Of a stretch of DNA of 64,000 nucleotides, positions 4,786 to 12,616 are shown piece by piece. Under the pieces are notes generated by a model. It was not told where the DNA came from, ran no database searches, and worked only from the letters and a program-made list of their open reading frames with translations. Origin of the DNA: Clostridiaceae bacterium. GTDB lineage: Bacteria > Bacillota > Clostridia > Oscillospirales > Acutalibacteraceae. The position numbers and the translations under genes were made by a program. How positions within the stretch are numbered: the stretch's first letter is position 1; each line of letters starts with the position of its first letter. The stretch lies in NCBI GenBank assembly GCA_016293225.1, contig JAEDEQ010000002.1:766-64765 (forward strand). Reading direction: 5' to 3'.

Positions 4786-6714
4786 ATGAAAAAATTAATT
4801 TCGGCGCTTCTTTGCTTCGTTTTGCTGCTTTCTTCGGTCTGCGTGGCGTCGGCAGGCTTTGACAAAAGCGAGTACAACGGCTATCCGGTCATTGTTGTTG
4901 CGGGCTATAGCTCTTCCGCTCAGTACCGTATTGATGAAAACGGAAACAAGGTTCATGTCTGGGGCATTGACATGAACGAGATCATTGCGGCCGTTTTCAA
5001 AAATATTGTTAAGATTGGCATTGACATAGGAGCTCTTGCCACCGGCAACGGCAAGGCTCTCGGCGAAACTGTGGGCAAGGAGTTTGTAAAGCTGTATTAC
5101 GACATGGCGTGCAATCCTGACGGCTCAAGCGTCTATCCGCTTCAGAGATACTGCGTTACCGCCGAGGAAAGCAACAGGGCCGCAATGCTCAAAAAATATG
5201 ACGGAGATCTTATCTATCAGCACGAAACCGAGATTATGGGCGAATATGCTCAGTATATCGGCGATGAAAACATCTATAACTTTAACTGCGATTTCAGAAT
5301 GGGCGCTGTGTTCTGTGCAAAGCAGCTTGATGAATTCATTCAGTCGGTCAAAGAGTATTCCGGAAAGGATAAGGTCAACATTTTTGCCGTTTCCCACGGA
5401 GGTCAGGTCACCGGTACATATCTCACTCTCTACGGCGAAAAGGGAGACGTCAACAATGCCGTAATGACCGTTCCGGCACTCGGAGGAGCAGGTATTGCGT
5501 ACAATCTTCTTGCAGATAATATTGAATTTGATGAAGAATGTCTCATGCGCTTTGTTGAGCACGGAATGATGTTTGAGACCGACTTCAACTGGCTTCTCCG
5601 TGCAAATGAGCTCGGCTTTCTTGATGAGGTTCTCAACACACTTGCTCCCTATGCGCGGCAGATCCTCGGCTATTGGGGCAGTATCTGGGATTTTTGCCCT
5701 ACTGAGTTTTACGAGGAAATGAAAGCGAAGAACCTTGACCCCGTAGCAAGCGCCGAGCTTATCAAAAAAAGCGACTATATGCACTATGAGGTGATGCCGG
5801 ACTTTGCAAACGGCTTCAGGCGTGCTCAGGCTGCCGGTACCGATGTTTATATCGTTGCAGGCTATGACAACAGGATTGTTACAGGCCTCAACCAGAGCTC
5901 GGACGGAATAATCACCGTCAATTCTTCAACCGGAGCAACGGCGGCGCCTTTGGGCAAGCGCTTTTCGGACGGTTATATCCAGAAAGTTGACACGGGCTTT
6001 TATCAGGTTTCGCCGTCAATGACGGTTGACGCCTCAACATCGTATCTTCCGAATCATACATGGTTTGTTGAAAACTTTTTCCACGGTATGATTTATAAAG
6101 ATCCGTATACAGCAGAGCTTCTTAAAACGCTGCTGCTTACCGAAAAAATCAAGGACGTTCATTCGTCGGCGGATTATCCGCAGTTCCATGCAACAACAAA
6201 CAAGTCCCATTCGGTTCACGCAATGTTCAACAACAGCACCGAGGGCTATGTTTGCTCAAAGGATACCGCGGTAATCATTACAAACCTTTCGGAAAAATAC
6301 AAGATGAAGCTTGCTTCCGTTTCGGCGCGCGGAGTTGACCTCGGTTTTTCGGACTCGGTCTTTACAAAAGTGCTCAAGCCCGGAGAGAGCGTTGAGATTA
6401 AGTTCACGGGGAAAATTCCGGAGCTTTCGCTCGCAAATTTCGATCTTGTTGTTGACTATACGCTTATAGGCAGTGCAACGCCGCTTGGCGAAAGACTCTT
6501 CAACTTTACCATAATGAACGGCGAAAAAGTGAAATATGACGCGGAAAATCCTTATGTTTCCGCAAACCTTGTCAGCGATTTTAATAAACTCCTTGACAAA
6601 AACAGTGATAATATTCTTACCAAAACAGGCAGCAAAACTTTTTTTGAAATGCTCTATAATATCATCCGGCCGTTCGTAAAATTCCTTGTTGAATTTATCG
6701 GAAAGATGAAATAA
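4786..6714 (+). CDS. secreted alpha/beta-hydrolase (lipase/esterase-like)
   Basis: Signal peptide MKKLISALLCFVLLLSSVCVASA and a nucleophile elbow FAVSHGGQ (AxSxG, as in Bacillus-type lipases). The large C-terminal region was not recognised. Confidence 0.6.
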   Translation: MKKLISALLCFVLLLSSVCVASAGFDKSEYNGYPVIVVAGYSSSAQYRIDENGNKVHVWGIDMNEIIAAVFKNIVKIGIDIGALATGNGKALGETVGKEFVKLYYDMACNPDGSSVYPLQRYCVTAEESNRAAMLKKYDGDLIYQHETEIMGEYAQYIGDENIYNFNCDFRMGAVFCAKQLDEFIQSVKEYSGKDKVNIFAVSHGGQVTGTYLTLYGEKGDVNNAVMTVPALGGAGIAYNLLADNIEFDEECLMRFVEHGMMFETDFNWLLRANELGFLDEVLNTLAPYARQILGYWGSIWDFCPTEFYEEMKAKNLDPVASAELIKKSDYMHYEVMPDFANGFRRAQAAGTDVYIVAGYDNRIVTGLNQSSDGIITVNSSTGATAAPLGKRFSDGYIQKVDTGFYQVSPSMTVDASTSYLPNHTWFVENFFHGMIYKDPYTAELLKTLLLTEKIKDVHSSADYPQFHATTNKSHSVHAMFNNSTEGYVCSKDTAVIITNLSEKYKMKLASVSARGVDLGFSDSVFTKVLKPGESVEIKFTGKIPELSLANFDLVVDYTLIGSATPLGERLFNFTIMNGEKVKYDAENPYVSANLVSDFNKLLDKNSDNILTKTGSKTFFEMLYNIIRPFVKFLVEFIGKMK

Positions 6715-6888
6715 CTGCTAAATAAACTGTTAAATAAATTAATATTTTTTTTACAGTTTTTGTAGAATTCTCCTGTGAGATGTGTTATATTTTAGTTAAT
6801 AAGGCAGGCTGCCGCAATAATTTCCGTTCGGTATTATTGCGGCTGCCCGGAACAGTCTTATGAAAAAATGAATGGAGGCGTTTTACCT

Positions 6889-8046
6889 ATGATTATCGGA
6901 ATCCCAAAAGAAATTATGCATGAAGAAGACCGTGTTGCGGCAACTCCGGACACCGTCAAAGCGTACGTAGCTCTCGGCGCTGATGTTCTTGTTGAAAAAA
7001 ATGCCGGCGTCGGCGCACATTTCACCGATGAACAATATGCTGCAGCAGGTGCAAAAATAATTCCCGACGTTGCAGAGCTTTATGACCGGGCTGAAGTTAT
7101 TCTCAAGGTAAAAGAGCCTCTGTTTAACGATGCAAAGGGCAAGCATGAAGTTGACATGATGCACGCAGGTCAATATCTTATCACGTTCATTCATCCTGCC
7201 TCACCCGTCAATCATCAGATGGTCAAAAATCTTGCGGCAAAGGGCGTTATTTCGATAACTCTTGACGGTATTCCCCGTATTTCAAGGGCGCAGTCAATGG
7301 ACGCACTCACCTCGATGAGTACCTGCGCGGGCTATAAGGGTATGATTATGGCTGCGGACAGACTTCCGTGGTTCATTCCGATGACCGCATGTGCAGTCGG
7401 AGTTATCAAGCCGGCAAAGATCCTTGTTCTCGGCGCGGGCGTTGCCGGAATGCAGGCTCTTGCAACCGGAAAACGTCTCGGCGGCGTTATCCATGCCGCT
7501 GATATCAGACCTATGGGTCAGGAAAACGCTCTTTCGCTCGGTGCAAAGATAATTGACCTCGGAATTGACCCGGCTCTTGCGGTCGGCGAGGGCGGCTATG
7601 CGCTTCGCCTTCCCGATGATGTTCTTGAGGGCGAAAGAGAAACCCTTGCAAAGGTACTTCCGGAAATGGACATCGTTTTCTGCTCGGCTCTTATTCCCGG
7701 AAAGCTTGCTCCTATCCTCATCACCGAGGAAATGGTCAAGAGCATGAAGCCCGGTTCGGTTATCGTTGATATCTCAATCGACCAGGGCGGCAACTGCGAA
7801 ATTACTCCCAAGGGCGATATAGAAGTCAAGCACGGCGTTACCATTATCGGAACGAAGAATATTCCCGGCATACTTCCCACAAGCTCAACCTGGATGTTTG
7901 CAAACAATATGCTTGAGCTTGTGAAGTTCATGACAAAGGACGGCAAGATCGTTCTTGATATGGATGATGTAATAATCAAATCTGCACTCACAACGATCGA
8001 CGGAAAAATTGTTCACGCCGGTGCGCTTGAGGCTATGGGTCTTTAA
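6889..8046 (+). CDS. pntAA: NAD(P) transhydrogenase subunit alpha part 1 (dI, NAD(H)-binding)
   Basis: Alanine dehydrogenase/PNT fold with Rossmann motif VLGAGVAGMQA. Followed by pntAB and pntB. Confidence 0.9.
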   Translation: MIIGIPKEIMHEEDRVAATPDTVKAYVALGADVLVEKNAGVGAHFTDEQYAAAGAKIIPDVAELYDRAEVILKVKEPLFNDAKGKHEVDMMHAGQYLITFIHPASPVNHQMVKNLAAKGVISITLDGIPRISRAQSMDALTSMSTCAGYKGMIMAADRLPWFIPMTACAVGVIKPAKILVLGAGVAGMQALATGKRLGGVIHAADIRPMGQENALSLGAKIIDLGIDPALAVGEGGYALRLPDDVLEGERETLAKVLPEMDIVFCSALIPGKLAPILITEEMVKSMKPGSVIVDISIDQGGNCEITPKGDIEVKHGVTIIGTKNIPGILPTSSTWMFANNMLELVKFMTKDGKIVLDMDDVIIKSALTTIDGKIVHAGALEAMGL

Positions 8047-8101: not shown

Positions 8102-8130
8102 CAAATCAGAACAGGGGGAGTTTGATAATT

Positions 8131-8439
8131 ATGACCATGAAAATTATTCTTGTTGCCGTCTTTTTGGTATCAATGCTTGTCGGCTACAAGCTTATCAACA
8201 ATGTGCCGAGTCTGCTCCACACGCCGCTTATGTCAGGCATGAATGCGCTTTCGGGCGTTACGGTTCTCGGCGCAATTTCATCAACCGTTATTGCTGTCAG
8301 AGCCGATGAACCCGTTATCGGATATATTTTCGGTTCGCTTGCTCTTATTCTTGCAATGGTAAATGTTGTCGGCGGCTTCGGTGTTACCGGACGTATGCTC
8401 AAAATGTTCAAGTCAAAGGAAAAGGGAGGTAAAAAGTGA
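8131..8439 (+). CDS. pntAB: NAD(P) transhydrogenase subunit alpha part 2 (membrane, dII helices)
   Basis: Roughly 100-aa polytopic protein containing LHTPLMSGMNALSG. ATG 8131 follows GGGGGAG. Confidence 0.88.
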   Translation: MTMKIILVAVFLVSMLVGYKLINNVPSLLHTPLMSGMNALSGVTVLGAISSTVIAVRADEPVIGYIFGSLALILAMVNVVGGFGVTGRMLKMFKSKEKGGKK

Positions 8440-10433
8440 TGCCGGATCTTTTCTATTACATTGCAAGCGCCGTCCTTGTTTTCGGCGTTCTTGTCGGAAT
8501 CTACCTCATGAGCAAGGTTGAAAAGGCGCATATCGGAAACAGTCTTTCCGCCGTTTCAATGGCTCTTGCAATCGCGCTGACAATGGTAAAATACGAGGTT
8601 TTCGGAACGGACGTCAGGACGGCGCTCATTGTTATAATTGTTTCAATGCTCCTCGGCGCTGCAATCGGCGCATGGATAACAAAGAAAGTCAAAATGATCC
8701 AGATGCCGCAGATGGTGGCGCTGCTTAACGGCTTCGGAGGCGGCGCGTCGGCGCTTGTGGGCGGCTTGACCCTCTTTACCGATAAGCAGGCGGATTCGTT
8801 CAGCGTTTTCACCGCCATGCTTGCCCTTGTTGTCGGCGTTGTAACCCTTGTAGGCTCGCTTGTTGCCGCGGCAAAGCTTCAGGGAATAATGAAGTCAAAG
8901 CCCGTTGTCCTTCCGGGACACAGCGTAATGACGGCCGTGTCGCTTGTCGGCTCGCTTGCCGTCTGCGTTGTTTCAATTTTTGTCCCTGCGCTGATACCTC
9001 TTGCAATAGCGGCGTTTGTGCTTTCCTTTGCGTTCGGTCTGTTTTTCTCAATCAGGGTCGGCGGAGCGGATATGCCCATTACAATTTCGCTTCTCAACTC
9101 CTTTTCCGGCGTTGCGGGGGCAATAGCAGGTCTTGCAATCAAGGACATTCTTCTTGTTGCCGTGGGCGGTATTGTCGGCGCGTCGGGTCTTATCCTCACT
9201 CAGATCATGTGCCGGGCAATGAACCGCAGCCTGTTTGACATTCTGCTCGGCAAAACTTCTTCGCACGGGAAAAAAGTTGAAAAAACTGAAAAGCCTGTTG
9301 CCGTTGAAGAAAACGAGCCCGAAAGCAAAGCAGAGCCGGTCAAAGAAGAACCGGTTCCCGAAATTAAAAAGCCCGGTGATCCTCTTTCCTCCGTGCTGAA
9401 AACCGCAAAAGACGTAATTATCGTACCCGGCTACGGAATGGCGCTCGCTCAGGCTCAGGCGCTTGTAAAGCAGCTTGAGGATAAGCTTGAAAAGAACGGC
9501 GCAAACGTCCGCTATGCGATTCACCCGGTGGCAGGCCGTATGCCCGGCCACATGAACGTTCTGCTTGCGGAGGTTGACGTTCCCTATGAAAAGCTTTACG
9601 AGATGAAAGACATCAACGATGATTTCAAGAACACGGACGTTGCAATAGTCATAGGTGCAAACGACGTTATGAACCCTGCGGCAAAGGAGACGGAGAACAC
9701 ACCGATTTCCGGAATGCCGATACTGAATGTTGCGGATGCAAAGAATATCATCATCTGCAACTACGACCTCAAGCCCGGTTATGCAGGCGTTGAAAATCCG
9801 CTTTACTCAAAAAAGGACGGCGTAACCCTGCTTTTGGGCGATGCGAAAGAAAGTCTCATGAAGCTTATTGCCTCCATGGATTCAACCGAACAGGCTGAAA
9901 CGGCAGAGGAGGACAAAAAGGAAAGCAAGCAGTCTACCGAAGCAGTGCTGAAAACCGCAAAAGACGTAATTATCGTACCCGGCTACGGCATGGCGCTCGC
10001 TCAGGCTCAGGCGCTTGTAAAGCAGCTTGAGGATAAGCTTGAAAAGAACGGCGCAAACGTCCGCTATGCGATTCACCCGGTGGCAGGCCGTATGCCCGGC
10101 CACATGAACGTTCTGCTTGCGGAGGTTGACGTTCCCTATGAAAAGCTTTACGAGATGAAAGACATCAACGATGATTTCAAGAACACGGACGTTGCAATAG
10201 TCATAGGTGCAAACGACGTTATGAACCCTGCGGCAAAGGAGACGGAGAACACACCGATTTCCGGAATGCCGATACTGAATGTTGCGGATGCAAAGAATAT
10301 CATCATCTGCAACTATGACCTCAAGCCCGGCTATGCAGGCGTTGAAAATCCGCTTTACTCAAAAAAGGACGGCGTAACCTTACTTTTGGGCGATGCAAAA
10401 GAAAGCCTCATGAAGCTGCTCGCACTTCTGTAA
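8436..10433 (+). CDS. pntB: NAD(P) transhydrogenase subunit beta with a duplicated C-terminal dIII domain
   Basis: Polytopic dII region (aa 1-275) followed by two copies of the dIII domain (IVPGYGMALAQAQ...HPVAGRMPGHMNVLLAE...GANDV). The protein is 665 aa; my recollection is that typical PntB proteins are 450-480 aa. The start is GTG 8436 or ATG 8439, overlapping the pntAB stop. Confidence 0.9.
   Translation: MMPDLFYYIASAVLVFGVLVGIYLMSKVEKAHIGNSLSAVSMALAIALTMVKYEVFGTDVRTALIVIIVSMLLGAAIGAWITKKVKMIQMPQMVALLNGFGGGASALVGGLTLFTDKQADSFSVFTAMLALVVGVVTLVGSLVAAAKLQGIMKSKPVVLPGHSVMTAVSLVGSLAVCVVSIFVPALIPLAIAAFVLSFAFGLFFSIRVGGADMPITISLLNSFSGVAGAIAGLAIKDILLVAVGGIVGASGLILTQIMCRAMNRSLFDILLGKTSSHGKKVEKTEKPVAVEENEPESKAEPVKEEPVPEIKKPGDPLSSVLKTAKDVIIVPGYGMALAQAQALVKQLEDKLEKNGANVRYAIHPVAGRMPGHMNVLLAEVDVPYEKLYEMKDINDDFKNTDVAIVIGANDVMNPAAKETENTPISGMPILNVADAKNIIICNYDLKPGYAGVENPLYSKKDGVTLLLGDAKESLMKLIASMDSTEQAETAEEDKKESKQSTEAVLKTAKDVIIVPGYGMALAQAQALVKQLEDKLEKNGANVRYAIHPVAGRMPGHMNVLLAEVDVPYEKLYEMKDINDDFKNTDVAIVIGANDVMNPAAKETENTPISGMPILNVADAKNIIICNYDLKPGYAGVENPLYSKKDGVTLLLGDAKESLMKLLALL
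9393..9865 (+). repeat. tandem duplication copy 1 (pntB dIII domain, aa 320-477)
   Basis: This 473-nt segment matches 9945-10417 at 466 of 473 positions. The offset is exactly 552 nt (184 codons, in frame). Confidence 0.97.
9945..10417 (+). repeat. tandem duplication copy 2 (pntB dIII domain, aa 504-661)
   Basis: See copy 1. The differences (copy-1 coordinates) are at 9437 and 9764 and five more between 9779 and 9855. All are synonymous. Confidence 0.97.
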
Positions 10434-10448
10434 TTGATTTTTACAAAA

Positions 10449-10478
10449 ATACCGATCCGACCGGGTCGGTATTTTTTT
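10449..10478 (+). terminator. intrinsic terminator after pntB
   Basis: ATACCGA...TCGGTAT stem with an inner CC/GG extension, followed by TTTTTTT. Confidence 0.75.
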
Positions 10479-10511
10479 GTCACGAACGAAGATTATTTAA
10501 TATCCGTTAGC

Positions 10512-10578: not shown

Positions 10579-11604
10579 ATGGACGCAAAGGAACTTTGCT
10601 TTGAGCTTGCCGCCGCTGACGGAACTTCCGGCGATGAAGCGGCAGCCTGCGCTGTCTGCGAAAAGTATCTTTCAAAATTCATGACCGTTAAAACGGATAT
10701 AACAGGCTCGCTTGTGGGCACGCTCGGAAACGGAAATTTTAAAATTCTGCTTGACGCTCATATTGACCGGATAGGGCTTGTTGTCAGGGAGATTGACGAA
10801 CAGGGCTTTCTGCTTGTTTCCGCTGTCGGCGGAATTGACGCGCGCGTGCTTGTCGGCGCCGAAGTTACCGTTATGGGCAAAGAACCGTTGCGCGGCGTAA
10901 TCTGTTCAACTCCGCCTCATTTGCTCACAAGTGAGGACAAGGAAAAGGGAGTTGAGGTCAAAAATCTTGCCGTTGATATAGGCTTTTCAAAAGAAAAAGC
11001 GGAAAAGGAAGTCTCTGTGGGTGACCGTATTCTTGTTTCGTCAAAACCACTTTCGCTTCTTGACGGAAAAATCTCCTGCGCTGCGCTTGACAACAGGAGC
11101 GGTGCGGCCGCGCTTGTTCTTGCGGCGCAAAAGGTTTCGGGCAGGCTCAAAAACTGCTCGCTTGCCTTGCAGTTCTCCGCGCAGGAGGAGGTTGGCGGAA
11201 GCGGTGCAAAAACCGCCGCCTATACAGCCGACAGCGATGCTGCAATAGTTGTGGACGTCGGCTTCGGCGCTGACGCCTATTGTGATAAGACGGAAACCAA
11301 CACTCTTTCAAAAGGTCCGTCAATCGGAATTTCTCCGACTCTTGACAGAGCGCTCGGAAAAGAACTCACCTGCATTGCAAAGGATAACGGTATTCCTTTC
11401 CAGCATGACGTGATGAGCGGCAGAACGGGTACTAATGCCGATCAGATTAACATTTCGCGCGGCGGAGTTAAAACGGCTCTGCTTTCAATACCTCTTCGCC
11501 ATATGCATACTCAGGTGGAGGTTATTGACGCAAGGGACGTTGAATATACCGCAGAGCTGATTGCGGCATACATTCTCAAAAAGGAGGCTGAGCTTGATGC
11601 TTGA
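10579..11604 (+). CDS. M42 family metallopeptidase (FrvX/CelM-like aminopeptidase)
   Basis: N-terminus resembles the M42 family (DGTSGDE; LDAHIDRIGLVV; ALDNRSG; QEEVGGSGA). Confidence 0.85.
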   Translation: MDAKELCFELAAADGTSGDEAAACAVCEKYLSKFMTVKTDITGSLVGTLGNGNFKILLDAHIDRIGLVVREIDEQGFLLVSAVGGIDARVLVGAEVTVMGKEPLRGVICSTPPHLLTSEDKEKGVEVKNLAVDIGFSKEKAEKEVSVGDRILVSSKPLSLLDGKISCAALDNRSGAAALVLAAQKVSGRLKNCSLALQFSAQEEVGGSGAKTAAYTADSDAAIVVDVGFGADAYCDKTETNTLSKGPSIGISPTLDRALGKELTCIAKDNGIPFQHDVMSGRTGTNADQINISRGGVKTALLSIPLRHMHTQVEVIDARDVEYTAELIAAYILKKEAELDA

Positions 11605-12616
11605 AACGCTTAAAACACTGTGCGAAATGAACGGCACCTCCGGCCGTGAGGAAAAAATCCGCGATTATATTTTAAAGCGTATCGAGGGTAAGTGCGAAAC
11701 CAAGGATGACCCTCTCGGGAATGTTATTGCCTTCAAAAAAGGTAAAATGCGTGCAAAAAACAAGGTCATGCTTTCCGCCCATATGGACGAAGTGGGCTTT
11801 ATTGTAACTTATATTACCGACGAGGGATACCTCCGTTTTGACACGGTCGGCGGCATTGACGAAAAGGTTATTGCCGGACGCGCCGTAACTGTCGGCGACA
11901 AGGAAATTCCGGGCGTCATCGGCGTCAAAGCGATTCATCTTACGGAAAAAGCGGACAGCGGAAAGGTTCCCGCAGTTTCAAAAATGTATATTGACATCGG
12001 CGCAAAAGACAAGGCGCAGGCCGAGGAATATGTTTCGGTAGGTGACAGCGCATATTTTATCTCTGACTTTGAGCGCTTCGGTGAAAGCAAGATAAAATCA
12101 AAGGCTCTTGACGATCGCTTCGGCTGCGCCGTTATGCTTGACATTATTGACAAAGAAACGGAGTATGACGCATACTTCTGTTTCCTTGTTCAGGAGGAGG
12201 TGGGTCTGCGCGGCGCGTCTGCGGCGGCATATACGGTTGCCCCCGATTACGCAATAGTCCTTGAAGCAACAACCGCTTCTGATGTTGCCGGAGTCAGGAA
12301 GGAAGACTCCGTCTGCCGCCTTTCAAAGGGAGCGGTAGTGTCCTTTATGGACAGGTCAACGGTTTATAACCGCGCACTTTTCAGGCGTGCATTTGAGCTT
12401 GCGAAGGAAAAAGACATTCCCTGCCAGACAAAAACAACGGTTGCAGGCGGAAACGACGCCGGCGCAATCCACAAAAGCGGCGCAGGAGTATATACGCTCA
12501 CCGTTTCGCTTCCGTGCAGATATATCCATTCCGCAACAAGCGTTGCCGATATAAACGATATGGAAAGCTGCAAAAAAATGGCGTACACTCTGCTTTCGGA
12601 GTTTGCCAATGCTTAA
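11597..12616 (+). CDS. M42 family metallopeptidase, second paralog
   Basis: Contains MNGTSGREEK, SAHMDEVGFIV, ALDDRFGC and QEEVGLRGA. ATG 11597 overlaps the upstream stop by 8 nt. Confidence 0.85.
   Translation: MLETLKTLCEMNGTSGREEKIRDYILKRIEGKCETKDDPLGNVIAFKKGKMRAKNKVMLSAHMDEVGFIVTYITDEGYLRFDTVGGIDEKVIAGRAVTVGDKEIPGVIGVKAIHLTEKADSGKVPAVSKMYIDIGAKDKAQAEEYVSVGDSAYFISDFERFGESKIKSKALDDRFGCAVMLDIIDKETEYDAYFCFLVQEEVGLRGASAAAYTVAPDYAIVLEATTASDVAGVRKEDSVCRLSKGAVVSFMDRSTVYNRALFRRAFELAKEKDIPCQTKTTVAGGNDAGAIHKSGAGVYTLTVSLPCRYIHSATSVADINDMESCKKMAYTLLSEFANA

Follow-up and report, generated by a model that had tools for sequence, protein, structure and literature searches.

A nicotinamide nucleotide transhydrogenase beta subunit with two tandem NADP(H)-binding domains and its multi-dIII relatives

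The DNA analysed here is a stretch of 64,000 nucleotides (nt) from contig JAEDEQ010000002.1 of a Clostridiaceae bacterium, referred to below as the window. It carries a pntB gene, for the beta subunit of a membrane nicotinamide-nucleotide transhydrogenase, in which the whole NADP(H)-binding domain (dIII) occurs twice in one open reading frame (ORF), downstream of a single membrane domain (dII). By homology the protein is clearly a PntB. The two-dIII architecture is almost certainly real and selected. The window protein is one of a large group of PntB proteins carrying two to at least five dIII copies, present in anaerobic Bacillota, Bacteroidota, Spirochaetota and other phyla, in which the dIII copies are under strong purifying selection. 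The multi-dIII design is widespread, selected and apparently undescribed.

A complete dIII domain duplicated in frame

Sequence self-comparison and a repeat search identify a direct repeat at 9393-9865 and 9945-10417, with an offset of 552 nt (184 codons) and 466 of 473 positions matching. The seven mismatches (9437 A/C, 9764 C/T, 9779 T/C, 9828 C/T, 9830 G/A, 9845 G/A and 9854 T/C) fall into six codons and are all silent (GGA/GGC, TAC/TAT, GGT/GGC, CTG/TTA, GCG/GCA and AGT/AGC). The longest exact block between the copies starts at 9438 and measures 326 nt. Extending the repeat by one base adds an eighth silent mismatch (Leu477 CTT vs Leu661 CTG), and outside the repeat block identity is at once at background level. 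Because every DNA difference between the copies is synonymous, the two dIII have the same protein sequence: residues 320-477 and 504-661 show no difference (numbering of the 665-amino-acid (aa) frame starting at GTG 8436). Over the 158 codons this amounts to 8 synonymous and 0 non-synonymous changes, with a synonymous divergence (dS) of 0.079 according to Nei-Gojobori. The neutral chance that seven changed codons are all silent is roughly 3e-5, about 22% of sites being synonymous.

These coordinates, the match count, the silent-only differences and the 326-nt block reproduce those of the original prediction, made from the DNA letters and their ORFs. Its central claim, the in-frame tandem duplication of a whole dIII, is borne out by the repeat comparison, Pfam, phmmer domain calls and structure matches. 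A stop or frameshift between the copies had been named as fatal to the claim; none occurs, and a single uninterrupted, stop-free frame (8436..10433) spans both. The likely start is ATG 8439, giving 664 aa, in agreement with the public record, the ribosome-binding site AAGGGAGG and a TGATG overlap with the preceding gene. The exact 664-aa sequence is present in a public protein collection. The profile search proposed as a check matches Pfam PNTB (PF02233) to two stretches of the protein (793.5 bits against a gathering cut-off of 31.7), the best covering residues 8-479; its best homologues have two to at least five dIII by domain calls. NCBIfam PRK09444 is likewise matched in two stretches. The NCBIfam equivalog score, 573 bits, lies under the curated cut-off of 689. 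The gene is organized as follows (664-aa numbering).

8439-10433, forward strand: pntB, 664-aa beta subunit composed of dII, linker, dIII-1, linker and dIII-2 (single ORF, Pfam PNTB, public protein record)
8439-9260, forward strand: dII membrane domain, aa 1-274 (PDB 4O9P_D 1.2e-36; E. coli 9L76_C 2.5e-36; AlphaFold2)
9261-9377, forward strand: predicted disordered acidic linker between dII and dIII-1, aa 275-313, 39 aa, SHGKKVEKTEKPVAVEENEPESKAEPVKEEPVPEIKKPG (AlphaFold2 pLDDT, predicted local distance difference test, below 50)
9393-9866, forward strand: dIII copy 1, 158 aa, aa 319-476 (phmmer domain call; E. coli dIII 2BRU_C 1.4e-53)
9867-9944, forward strand: inter-dIII linker, 26 aa, IASMDSTEQAETAEEDKKESKQSTEA (78 nt of unique sequence; core pLDDT below 50)
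9945-10418, forward strand: dIII copy 2, 158 aa, same protein sequence as copy 1 (repeat comparison, phmmer)
10419-10433, forward strand: C-terminal tail LALL and stop codon (sequence)

In the AlphaFold2 model, built on a 114-sequence alignment, dII is all helical with a pLDDT of about 90 and both dIII are folded, while two segments fall below 50 (residues 275-313 and 483-497). The model gives no confident arrangement of the domains relative to each other (predicted template modelling score, pTM, 0.49). PntB is thus predicted to resemble beads on a string, with the dIII domains carried on disordered acidic linkers. Of the residues conserved in dII, the counterparts of E. coli Asp213, Asn222 and Arg265 are present, GGADMP, LLNSFSG and AMNRS aligning to the E. 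coli motifs.

The inter-dIII linker has no counterpart in the single-copy allele described below but has homologues in P0029, P0116, P0008 and P0007. Across the family, inter-copy linkers (n=114) have a median length of 27 aa, are rich in A/E/S/T/D/P/K/G and carry a mean net charge of -2.8. This survey and AlphaFold2 agree with the charged linker originally noticed between the copies, and indicate that it is flexible. The linker between dII and dIII-1 had been described as unusually long and acidic, at about 45 aa. Long and acidic it is, but the AlphaFold2 model reduces its disordered part to 39 aa, and it is a feature of the clade rather than of the duplication: the median length of this first linker is 38 aa in single-dIII relatives and 45 aa in multi-dIII proteins.

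The family of multi-dIII PntB proteins

PntB proteins were grouped as multi-dIII when at least two complete dIII follow a single dII in one ORF, joined by low-complexity linkers of 17-48 aa. The window protein has this layout, with two copies and a 26-aa linker. The best 120 database homologues are all multi-dIII. Most have three copies (77) or four (40); two copies occur in 2 (the window makes 3), and one N-terminally truncated protein has at least five. Among the best 80 loci of a GTDB species scan (one genome per species), 76 have 2 (45), 3 (24) or 4 (7) dIII, always in one ORF. In a library of representatives at 50% identity, 757 proteins match dIII (E below 1e-30) and 21 contain at least two; identity between copies of the same protein ranges in these from 37% to 99%. 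A protein search with dII alone returned single-dIII proteins only, the multi-dIII matches found earlier being absent, and is unusable for estimating prevalence.

Among the carriers are a closed genome and several cultured isolates, namely Hoylesella marshii DSM 16973, Porphyromonas circumdentaria ATCC 51356, Dysgonomonas hofstadii DSM 104969 and three Parabacteroides strains, together with Alkalicella caledoniensis, where four dIII copies lie on a 3.70-Mb contig. Carriers known as metagenome-assembled genomes (MAGs) are labelled Treponema, Riflebacteria, Desulfovibrio, Desulfitobacterium, Limnochordia and many Clostridia. Database annotation of the multi-dIII proteins is always merely 'subunit beta'.

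The original prediction knew of no described PntB with two linked dIII domains, and was to fall if such proteins were already a common described architecture. Common they are, by the database counts; no description of a tandem-dIII transhydrogenase was found in open-access papers and bioRxiv preprints, where absence is no proof.

Purifying selection and concerted evolution

Within-gene copy pairs with dS above 0.1 (n=137) have a median ratio of non-synonymous to synonymous divergence (dN/dS) of 0.071, with an interquartile range of 0.05-0.10, and dS between copies reaches 1-2 across the family at a dN/dS of about 0.07. The two dIII copies of H. marshii, for example, are 79% identical in DNA (dS 1.8, dN/dS 0.037), and the four copies of P. 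circumdentaria are 74-82% identical. Purifying selection on both copies, suspected earlier from the silent differences in the window, is found there (8 synonymous, 0 non-synonymous) as well as in the family (median 0.07 in 137 pairs).

The dIII sequences of the window, L002 and L003 are about 17% apart from one species to the next, whereas the copies within each protein are only 0.4-3.6% apart, and the residual copy differences are located at the repeat edges. Copy-specific bases at repeat sites 44 and 461 are common to the window and the P0140 lineage. Likewise, P0116 copy 1 resembles P0008 copy 1 (98%) and P0116 copy 2 resembles P0008 copy 3 (99%). These comparisons support an older duplication, predating these species, whose copies are kept near-identical by gene conversion or unequal recombination; the window's group shows concerted evolution, in which the core of the duplication is being homogenised. 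The original prediction had left the choice between a very recent duplication and ongoing gene conversion. The sister species and the shared copy-specific bases favour gene conversion of an older duplication and speak against a very recent one.

In arrays of at least three dIII, the most divergent copy is the C-terminal one in 24 of 31 cases and the first in 7, never a middle one (for example L015, L022, L025 and L058); copies closer to dII are often 95-99% identical. A distinct situation is observed in several Limnochordia/Bacillota MAGs (L063, L067, L069 and L077), which contain two anciently diverged dIII paralogues, 54-66% identical within the protein. These correspond by position across species, copy 1 bearing N-[YF]-D-T-K-P and copy 2 N-L-D-R-[SA]-P, and dN/dS between them is 0.24-0.48. 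Their sequences suggest subfunctionalisation rather than homogenisation.

Nucleotide-binding site and channel residues

Both dIII copies of the window include the GYG fingerprint, H345, R350, D392 and Y431. Nearly all aligned copies of the family retain G314, Y315, G316, H345, R350, H354, D392, Y431 and D450 (E. coli numbering), including the Limnochordia-like pairs in spite of an identity of only 54-66%. The exceptions are H345N in the first copy of P0282, D450N in the first copy of P0279 and the degenerate second copies of P0285 (L093 2554-4548; R350H, Y431V) and P0288 (L094 4001-5980; Y431W, G433E).

The KRS motif (K424-R425-S426) belongs to loop E of the NADP(H) site, a loop said to define the specificity towards NADP(H) rather than NAD(H) (PMC9529548). 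In a gapless alignment it is replaced by N-Y-D in both window copies (9759-9767 and 10311-10319; aa 441-443 and 625-627). The N-x-D form is clade-wide and includes single-dIII relatives; among the best 150 library representatives, N-x-D accounts for 71 motif occurrences and KRS for 89. N-Y-D was considered as a marker of multi-dIII proteins and rejected, since the single-dIII relatives have it too. Nucleotide affinity or specificity of the N-x-D clade may differ, judging from this substitution. P0285 is KRS-type, so dIII has been duplicated outside the N-x-D clade too. Another KRS-type protein, P0287 (255 aa), lies on a 958-nt contig and was uninformative.

The channel residues are also unusual. 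Ser41 of PntAB, the small membrane subunit (8251-8253), occupies the position of channel His42 of T. thermophilus alpha2, and Asn97 of PntB (8727-8729) that of His91 of E. coli beta. Both canonical channel histidines are missing clade-wide, with Ser in 83/85 and Asn in 90/91 fetched loci. The loss of KRS and that of the channel histidines are independent of dIII copy number. The absence of the histidines raises the question of how coupling is achieved in this clade, or which ion serves it. Open-access papers and bioRxiv preprints yielded neither a characterised member of the N-x-D clade nor a paper on a clade without channel histidines or on Na+ coupling.

The pntAA-pntAB-pntB operon

A compact three-gene operon, pntAA-pntAB-pntB, encodes a three-subunit membrane nicotinamide-nucleotide transhydrogenase of the Thermus/Rhodospirillum type. 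Besides pntB, its features are the following.

6868-8046, forward strand: pntAA, soluble NAD(H)-binding dI subunit, alpha1 (Pfam AlaDh_PNT_N and AlaDh_PNT_C)
8122-8439, forward strand: pntAB, small membrane subunit alpha2 (Pfam PNTB_4TM 2.1e-27; PDB 4O9P_C, T. thermophilus alpha2, 1.1e-16)
8422-8441, forward strand: ribosome-binding site AAGGGAGG (8422-8429) and pntB ATG (8439-8441), read from the sequence
10457-10479, forward strand: terminator-like hairpin CCGACCGGGTCGG with a T-run after it, closing the operon

The likely start of pntAA is ATG 6889, giving 385 aa as in public records; a 385-aa gene is also called in L001 and L082. Its product covers only positions 1-368 of the 510 of NCBIfam PntA and therefore has no membrane part. 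For pntAB the likely start is ATG 8131 (102 aa). The pntB ATG overlaps the pntAB TGA stop (TGATG), indicating translational coupling.

This three-subunit arrangement, with a split alpha and a soluble, untethered dI, is found at 75/75 readable multi-dIII loci (71/71 plus the four distant loci P0285, P0288, P0282 and P0279, one of which is KRS-type).

The flanks of the operon (4786-6714 and 10579-12616) hold the same neighbours in L001. Upstream lies a gene for a protein of 642 aa that has no match in NCBIfam and whose N-terminus resembles a signal peptide, and downstream two adjoining M42-family aminopeptidase genes with overlapping ORFs.

A possible tethered-carrier mechanism

In characterised transhydrogenases, dIII exchanges NADP(H) only face-down, docked on dII, and transfers hydride only face-up, detached, on dI (PMC13635403). 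The dI dimer engages only one dIII at a time, which may force an anti-phase movement of both dIII (PMC13635403; PMC5742237); it binds one dIII tightly (dissociation constant below 60 nM) and the second weakly (PMC5742237).

The mechanism proposed here would make use of this mobility. As the mobile element, dIII would dock face-down on dII for NADP(H) exchange coupled to ion translocation, and would leave it again to meet dI face-up when hydride is transferred. The dI dimer of three-subunit enzymes has no covalent attachment and would have to stay bound to a dIII; tandem dIII would for this reason work like tandem carrier domains. While one copy sits on dII, another could retain the dI dimer or react with it. 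Such an arrangement would keep dI at the membrane and stabilise the complex, would allow hydride transfer to proceed at the same time as nucleotide exchange, raising throughput, and would make strict anti-phase alternation of the two protomers less necessary. Tandem dIII might in this way change the stoichiometry or the alternating-site mechanism, as the original prediction had inferred. We are inclined to favour the explanation as a whole, a selected tandem-dIII architecture with a tethered-carrier mechanism. The carrier role taken by itself is put forward more tentatively, as a serious possibility suggested by analogy.

A bolder version seems to us rather unlikely. According to it, the multi-dIII proteins would form a distinct subfamily of multi-carrier 'swinging-arm' machines, whose tethered dIII alternate at one dII and capture free dI, the strict alternating-site cycle being abolished. 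With N-x-D for KRS and no channel histidines, such enzymes may differ in nucleotide handling and/or in the coupling ion, for instance Na+.

Several observations weigh against the tethered-carrier explanation. The carrier mechanism is drawn by analogy, and if the slow step is docking on dII, additional dIII would queue with no gain. Isolated dIII holds NADP(H) very tightly, and surplus copies might just sit occluded. Because the clade is devoid of KRS and of both channel histidines, the mechanism described for E. coli and T. thermophilus may not apply to it in detail. Single-dIII relatives within the clade are also split-alpha (5/5), and the loci are phylogenetically related, so that the link between split alpha and tandem dIII is weak evidence. 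Finally, assemblies of this one species differ in pntB, some giving a product of 480 aa (one dIII) and others one of 664 aa (two dIII). Both alleles come from one pig-gut project (L001 3001-4443, 480 aa, vs L082 1501-3495, 664 aa), and L001 shows a mix of copy-1 and copy-2 states at the diagnostic sites. Either one copy is enough for viability or the repeat was collapsed by short-read assemblers, from which collapse or breakage is expected given the exact core of 326 nt. Similar differences of three versus four copies are observed in Porphyromonas uenonis, in P. endodontalis and in the pair P0107/P0055. They, like the difference of one versus two, represent either copy-number polymorphism or short-read repeat collapse.

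Alternative explanations

The window is a MAG contig, and a metagenome assembler could have expanded one dIII into two or stitched two strains together. L001, a MEGAHIT k127 assembly of a 98.4%-identical strain, has a single dIII copy, 9 of the 15 listed members of the window PntB's own 90% cluster are 480 aa long, and the exact block of 326 nt exceeds usual k-mers. A single-copy gene, however, could not have given rise to the unique 78-nt linker, which has homologues between the dIII copies of related species. The two-copy form was found again in independent assemblies: L082, from another sample of the same pig-gut project, has a two-copy gene 97.6% identical to that of the window, and a lineage at 94% identity (P0140) has one on at least 24 contigs from different samples. 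The sister species L002 and L003 possess two dIII copies each. Copies that are 74-82% identical in DNA, as seen in isolate genomes, cannot be artefacts, and the usual response of short-read assemblers to such repeats is collapse or breakage, not expansion, a behaviour with which contigs ending within the repeat agree (L073; partial proteins at contig ends). On the unique linker, the silent-only differences, the independent assemblies and the sister species, assembly expansion was rejected, and we regard an artefact as extremely improbable. Scarcely more probable is a very recent, selectively neutral duplication, in frame by chance and not yet decayed. It would account for copies 98.5% identical with a 326-nt exact core, and for a single-copy allele that the same species may have. 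It is at odds with the two-copy genes and homologous linkers of species at only 84-87% protein identity, with copy-specific bases common to different lineages, with the 8 synonymous and 0 non-synonymous differences in the window, and with a family dS of up to 1-2 at a dN/dS of about 0.07.

The remaining alternative accepts that the extra dIII are selected but places them outside the coupled cycle. They might bind NADP(H) tightly and so store or buffer it, act on dI as regulatory decoys, or serve as scaffolds on which each dIII recruits a dI dimer of its own, hydride then being exchanged in an uncoupled 'cyclic' manner. Conservation of the nucleotide-binding residues makes it probable that the copies bind nucleotide, and a detached dIII is occluded (PMC13635403). 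Unequal roles are hinted at by the last copy being the most divergent in 24/31 arrays of at least three, and the second copy is degenerate in P0285 and P0288 (R350H, Y431V/W). Yet the window copies are identical in protein sequence, so that no functional difference is encoded apart from position, and every surface of every copy is under strong purifying selection. A buffer of one to four sites per enzyme would moreover be quantitatively trivial. A role outside the cycle therefore appears unlikely, though far less so than an artefact or a neutral duplication.

Comparison with known transhydrogenases and carrier systems

Present transhydrogenase models assume one dIII per protomer and two per dimer, which flip between dI and dII in anti-phase. 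With 4 to 10 dIII per dimer, all of them under purifying selection, natural enzymes provide a test of whether alternation is obligatory. They also bear on what limits turnover, travel and flipping of dIII or its docking on dII, and on how three-subunit enzymes retain the soluble dI dimer. Experiments are feasible since cultured isolates (Hoylesella marshii, Porphyromonas circumdentaria, Dysgonomonas hofstadii and Alkalicella caledoniensis) carry the genes; multi-dIII PntB proteins should surprise specialists and can be tested directly in these organisms. The large clade of anaerobes without KRS and channel histidines equally merits biochemical attention. Many short-read MAGs have probably lost or interrupted in-frame repeats that are nearly identical, through collapse or breakage, and dIII copy number and protein length are consequently likely to be under-reported in databases.

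A 2017 review describes the three-domain architecture as 'universally conserved' (PMC5742237). The window PntB deviates from three usual defining features: one dIII per beta, the KRS motif and the channel histidine. Its closest known counterparts are the three-subunit enzymes of T. thermophilus and R. rubrum, which share a soluble dI, a small alpha2 and a beta with dII and dIII, with homology in alpha2 (1.1e-16), dII (1.2e-36) and dIII (about 1e-47 to 1e-52). T. thermophilus also has Asn at the position of E. coli His91 of beta. Unlike the window protein, these enzymes have one dIII per beta, and the window differs from them by NYD in place of KRS and Ser in place of alpha2 His42. Its linker of about 39 aa between dII and dIII contrasts with the 14-19 aa stated for 'all TH homologs' (PMC5742237). 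E. coli PntAB is homologous in dII and dIII (dIII 1.4e-53), and its residues G314, Y315, G316, H345, R350, H354, D392, Y431, D213, N222 and R265 are conserved in the window. It differs by a fused alpha, so that dI is tethered to the membrane, by its single dIII and by the presence of KRS and His91.

Functional parallels may be sought outside the transhydrogenases. Tandem swinging-arm carriers are known from the one to three lipoyl domains of the E2 component of 2-oxo-acid dehydrogenases and from the tandem acyl carrier proteins (ACPs) of polyunsaturated fatty acid synthases. As in the multi-dIII proteins, near-identical mobile domains are arranged head to tail on flexible Ala/Pro/charged linkers of about 20-30 aa, their copy number depends on the species and the copies evolve in concert. 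The folds are unrelated, and dIII carries a non-covalent dinucleotide and must also gate an ion channel. A gain in flux from extra copies is a supposition for the transhydrogenase, whose tandem dIII would nevertheless share with these carriers the arrangement of mobile domains repeated along a flexible chain.

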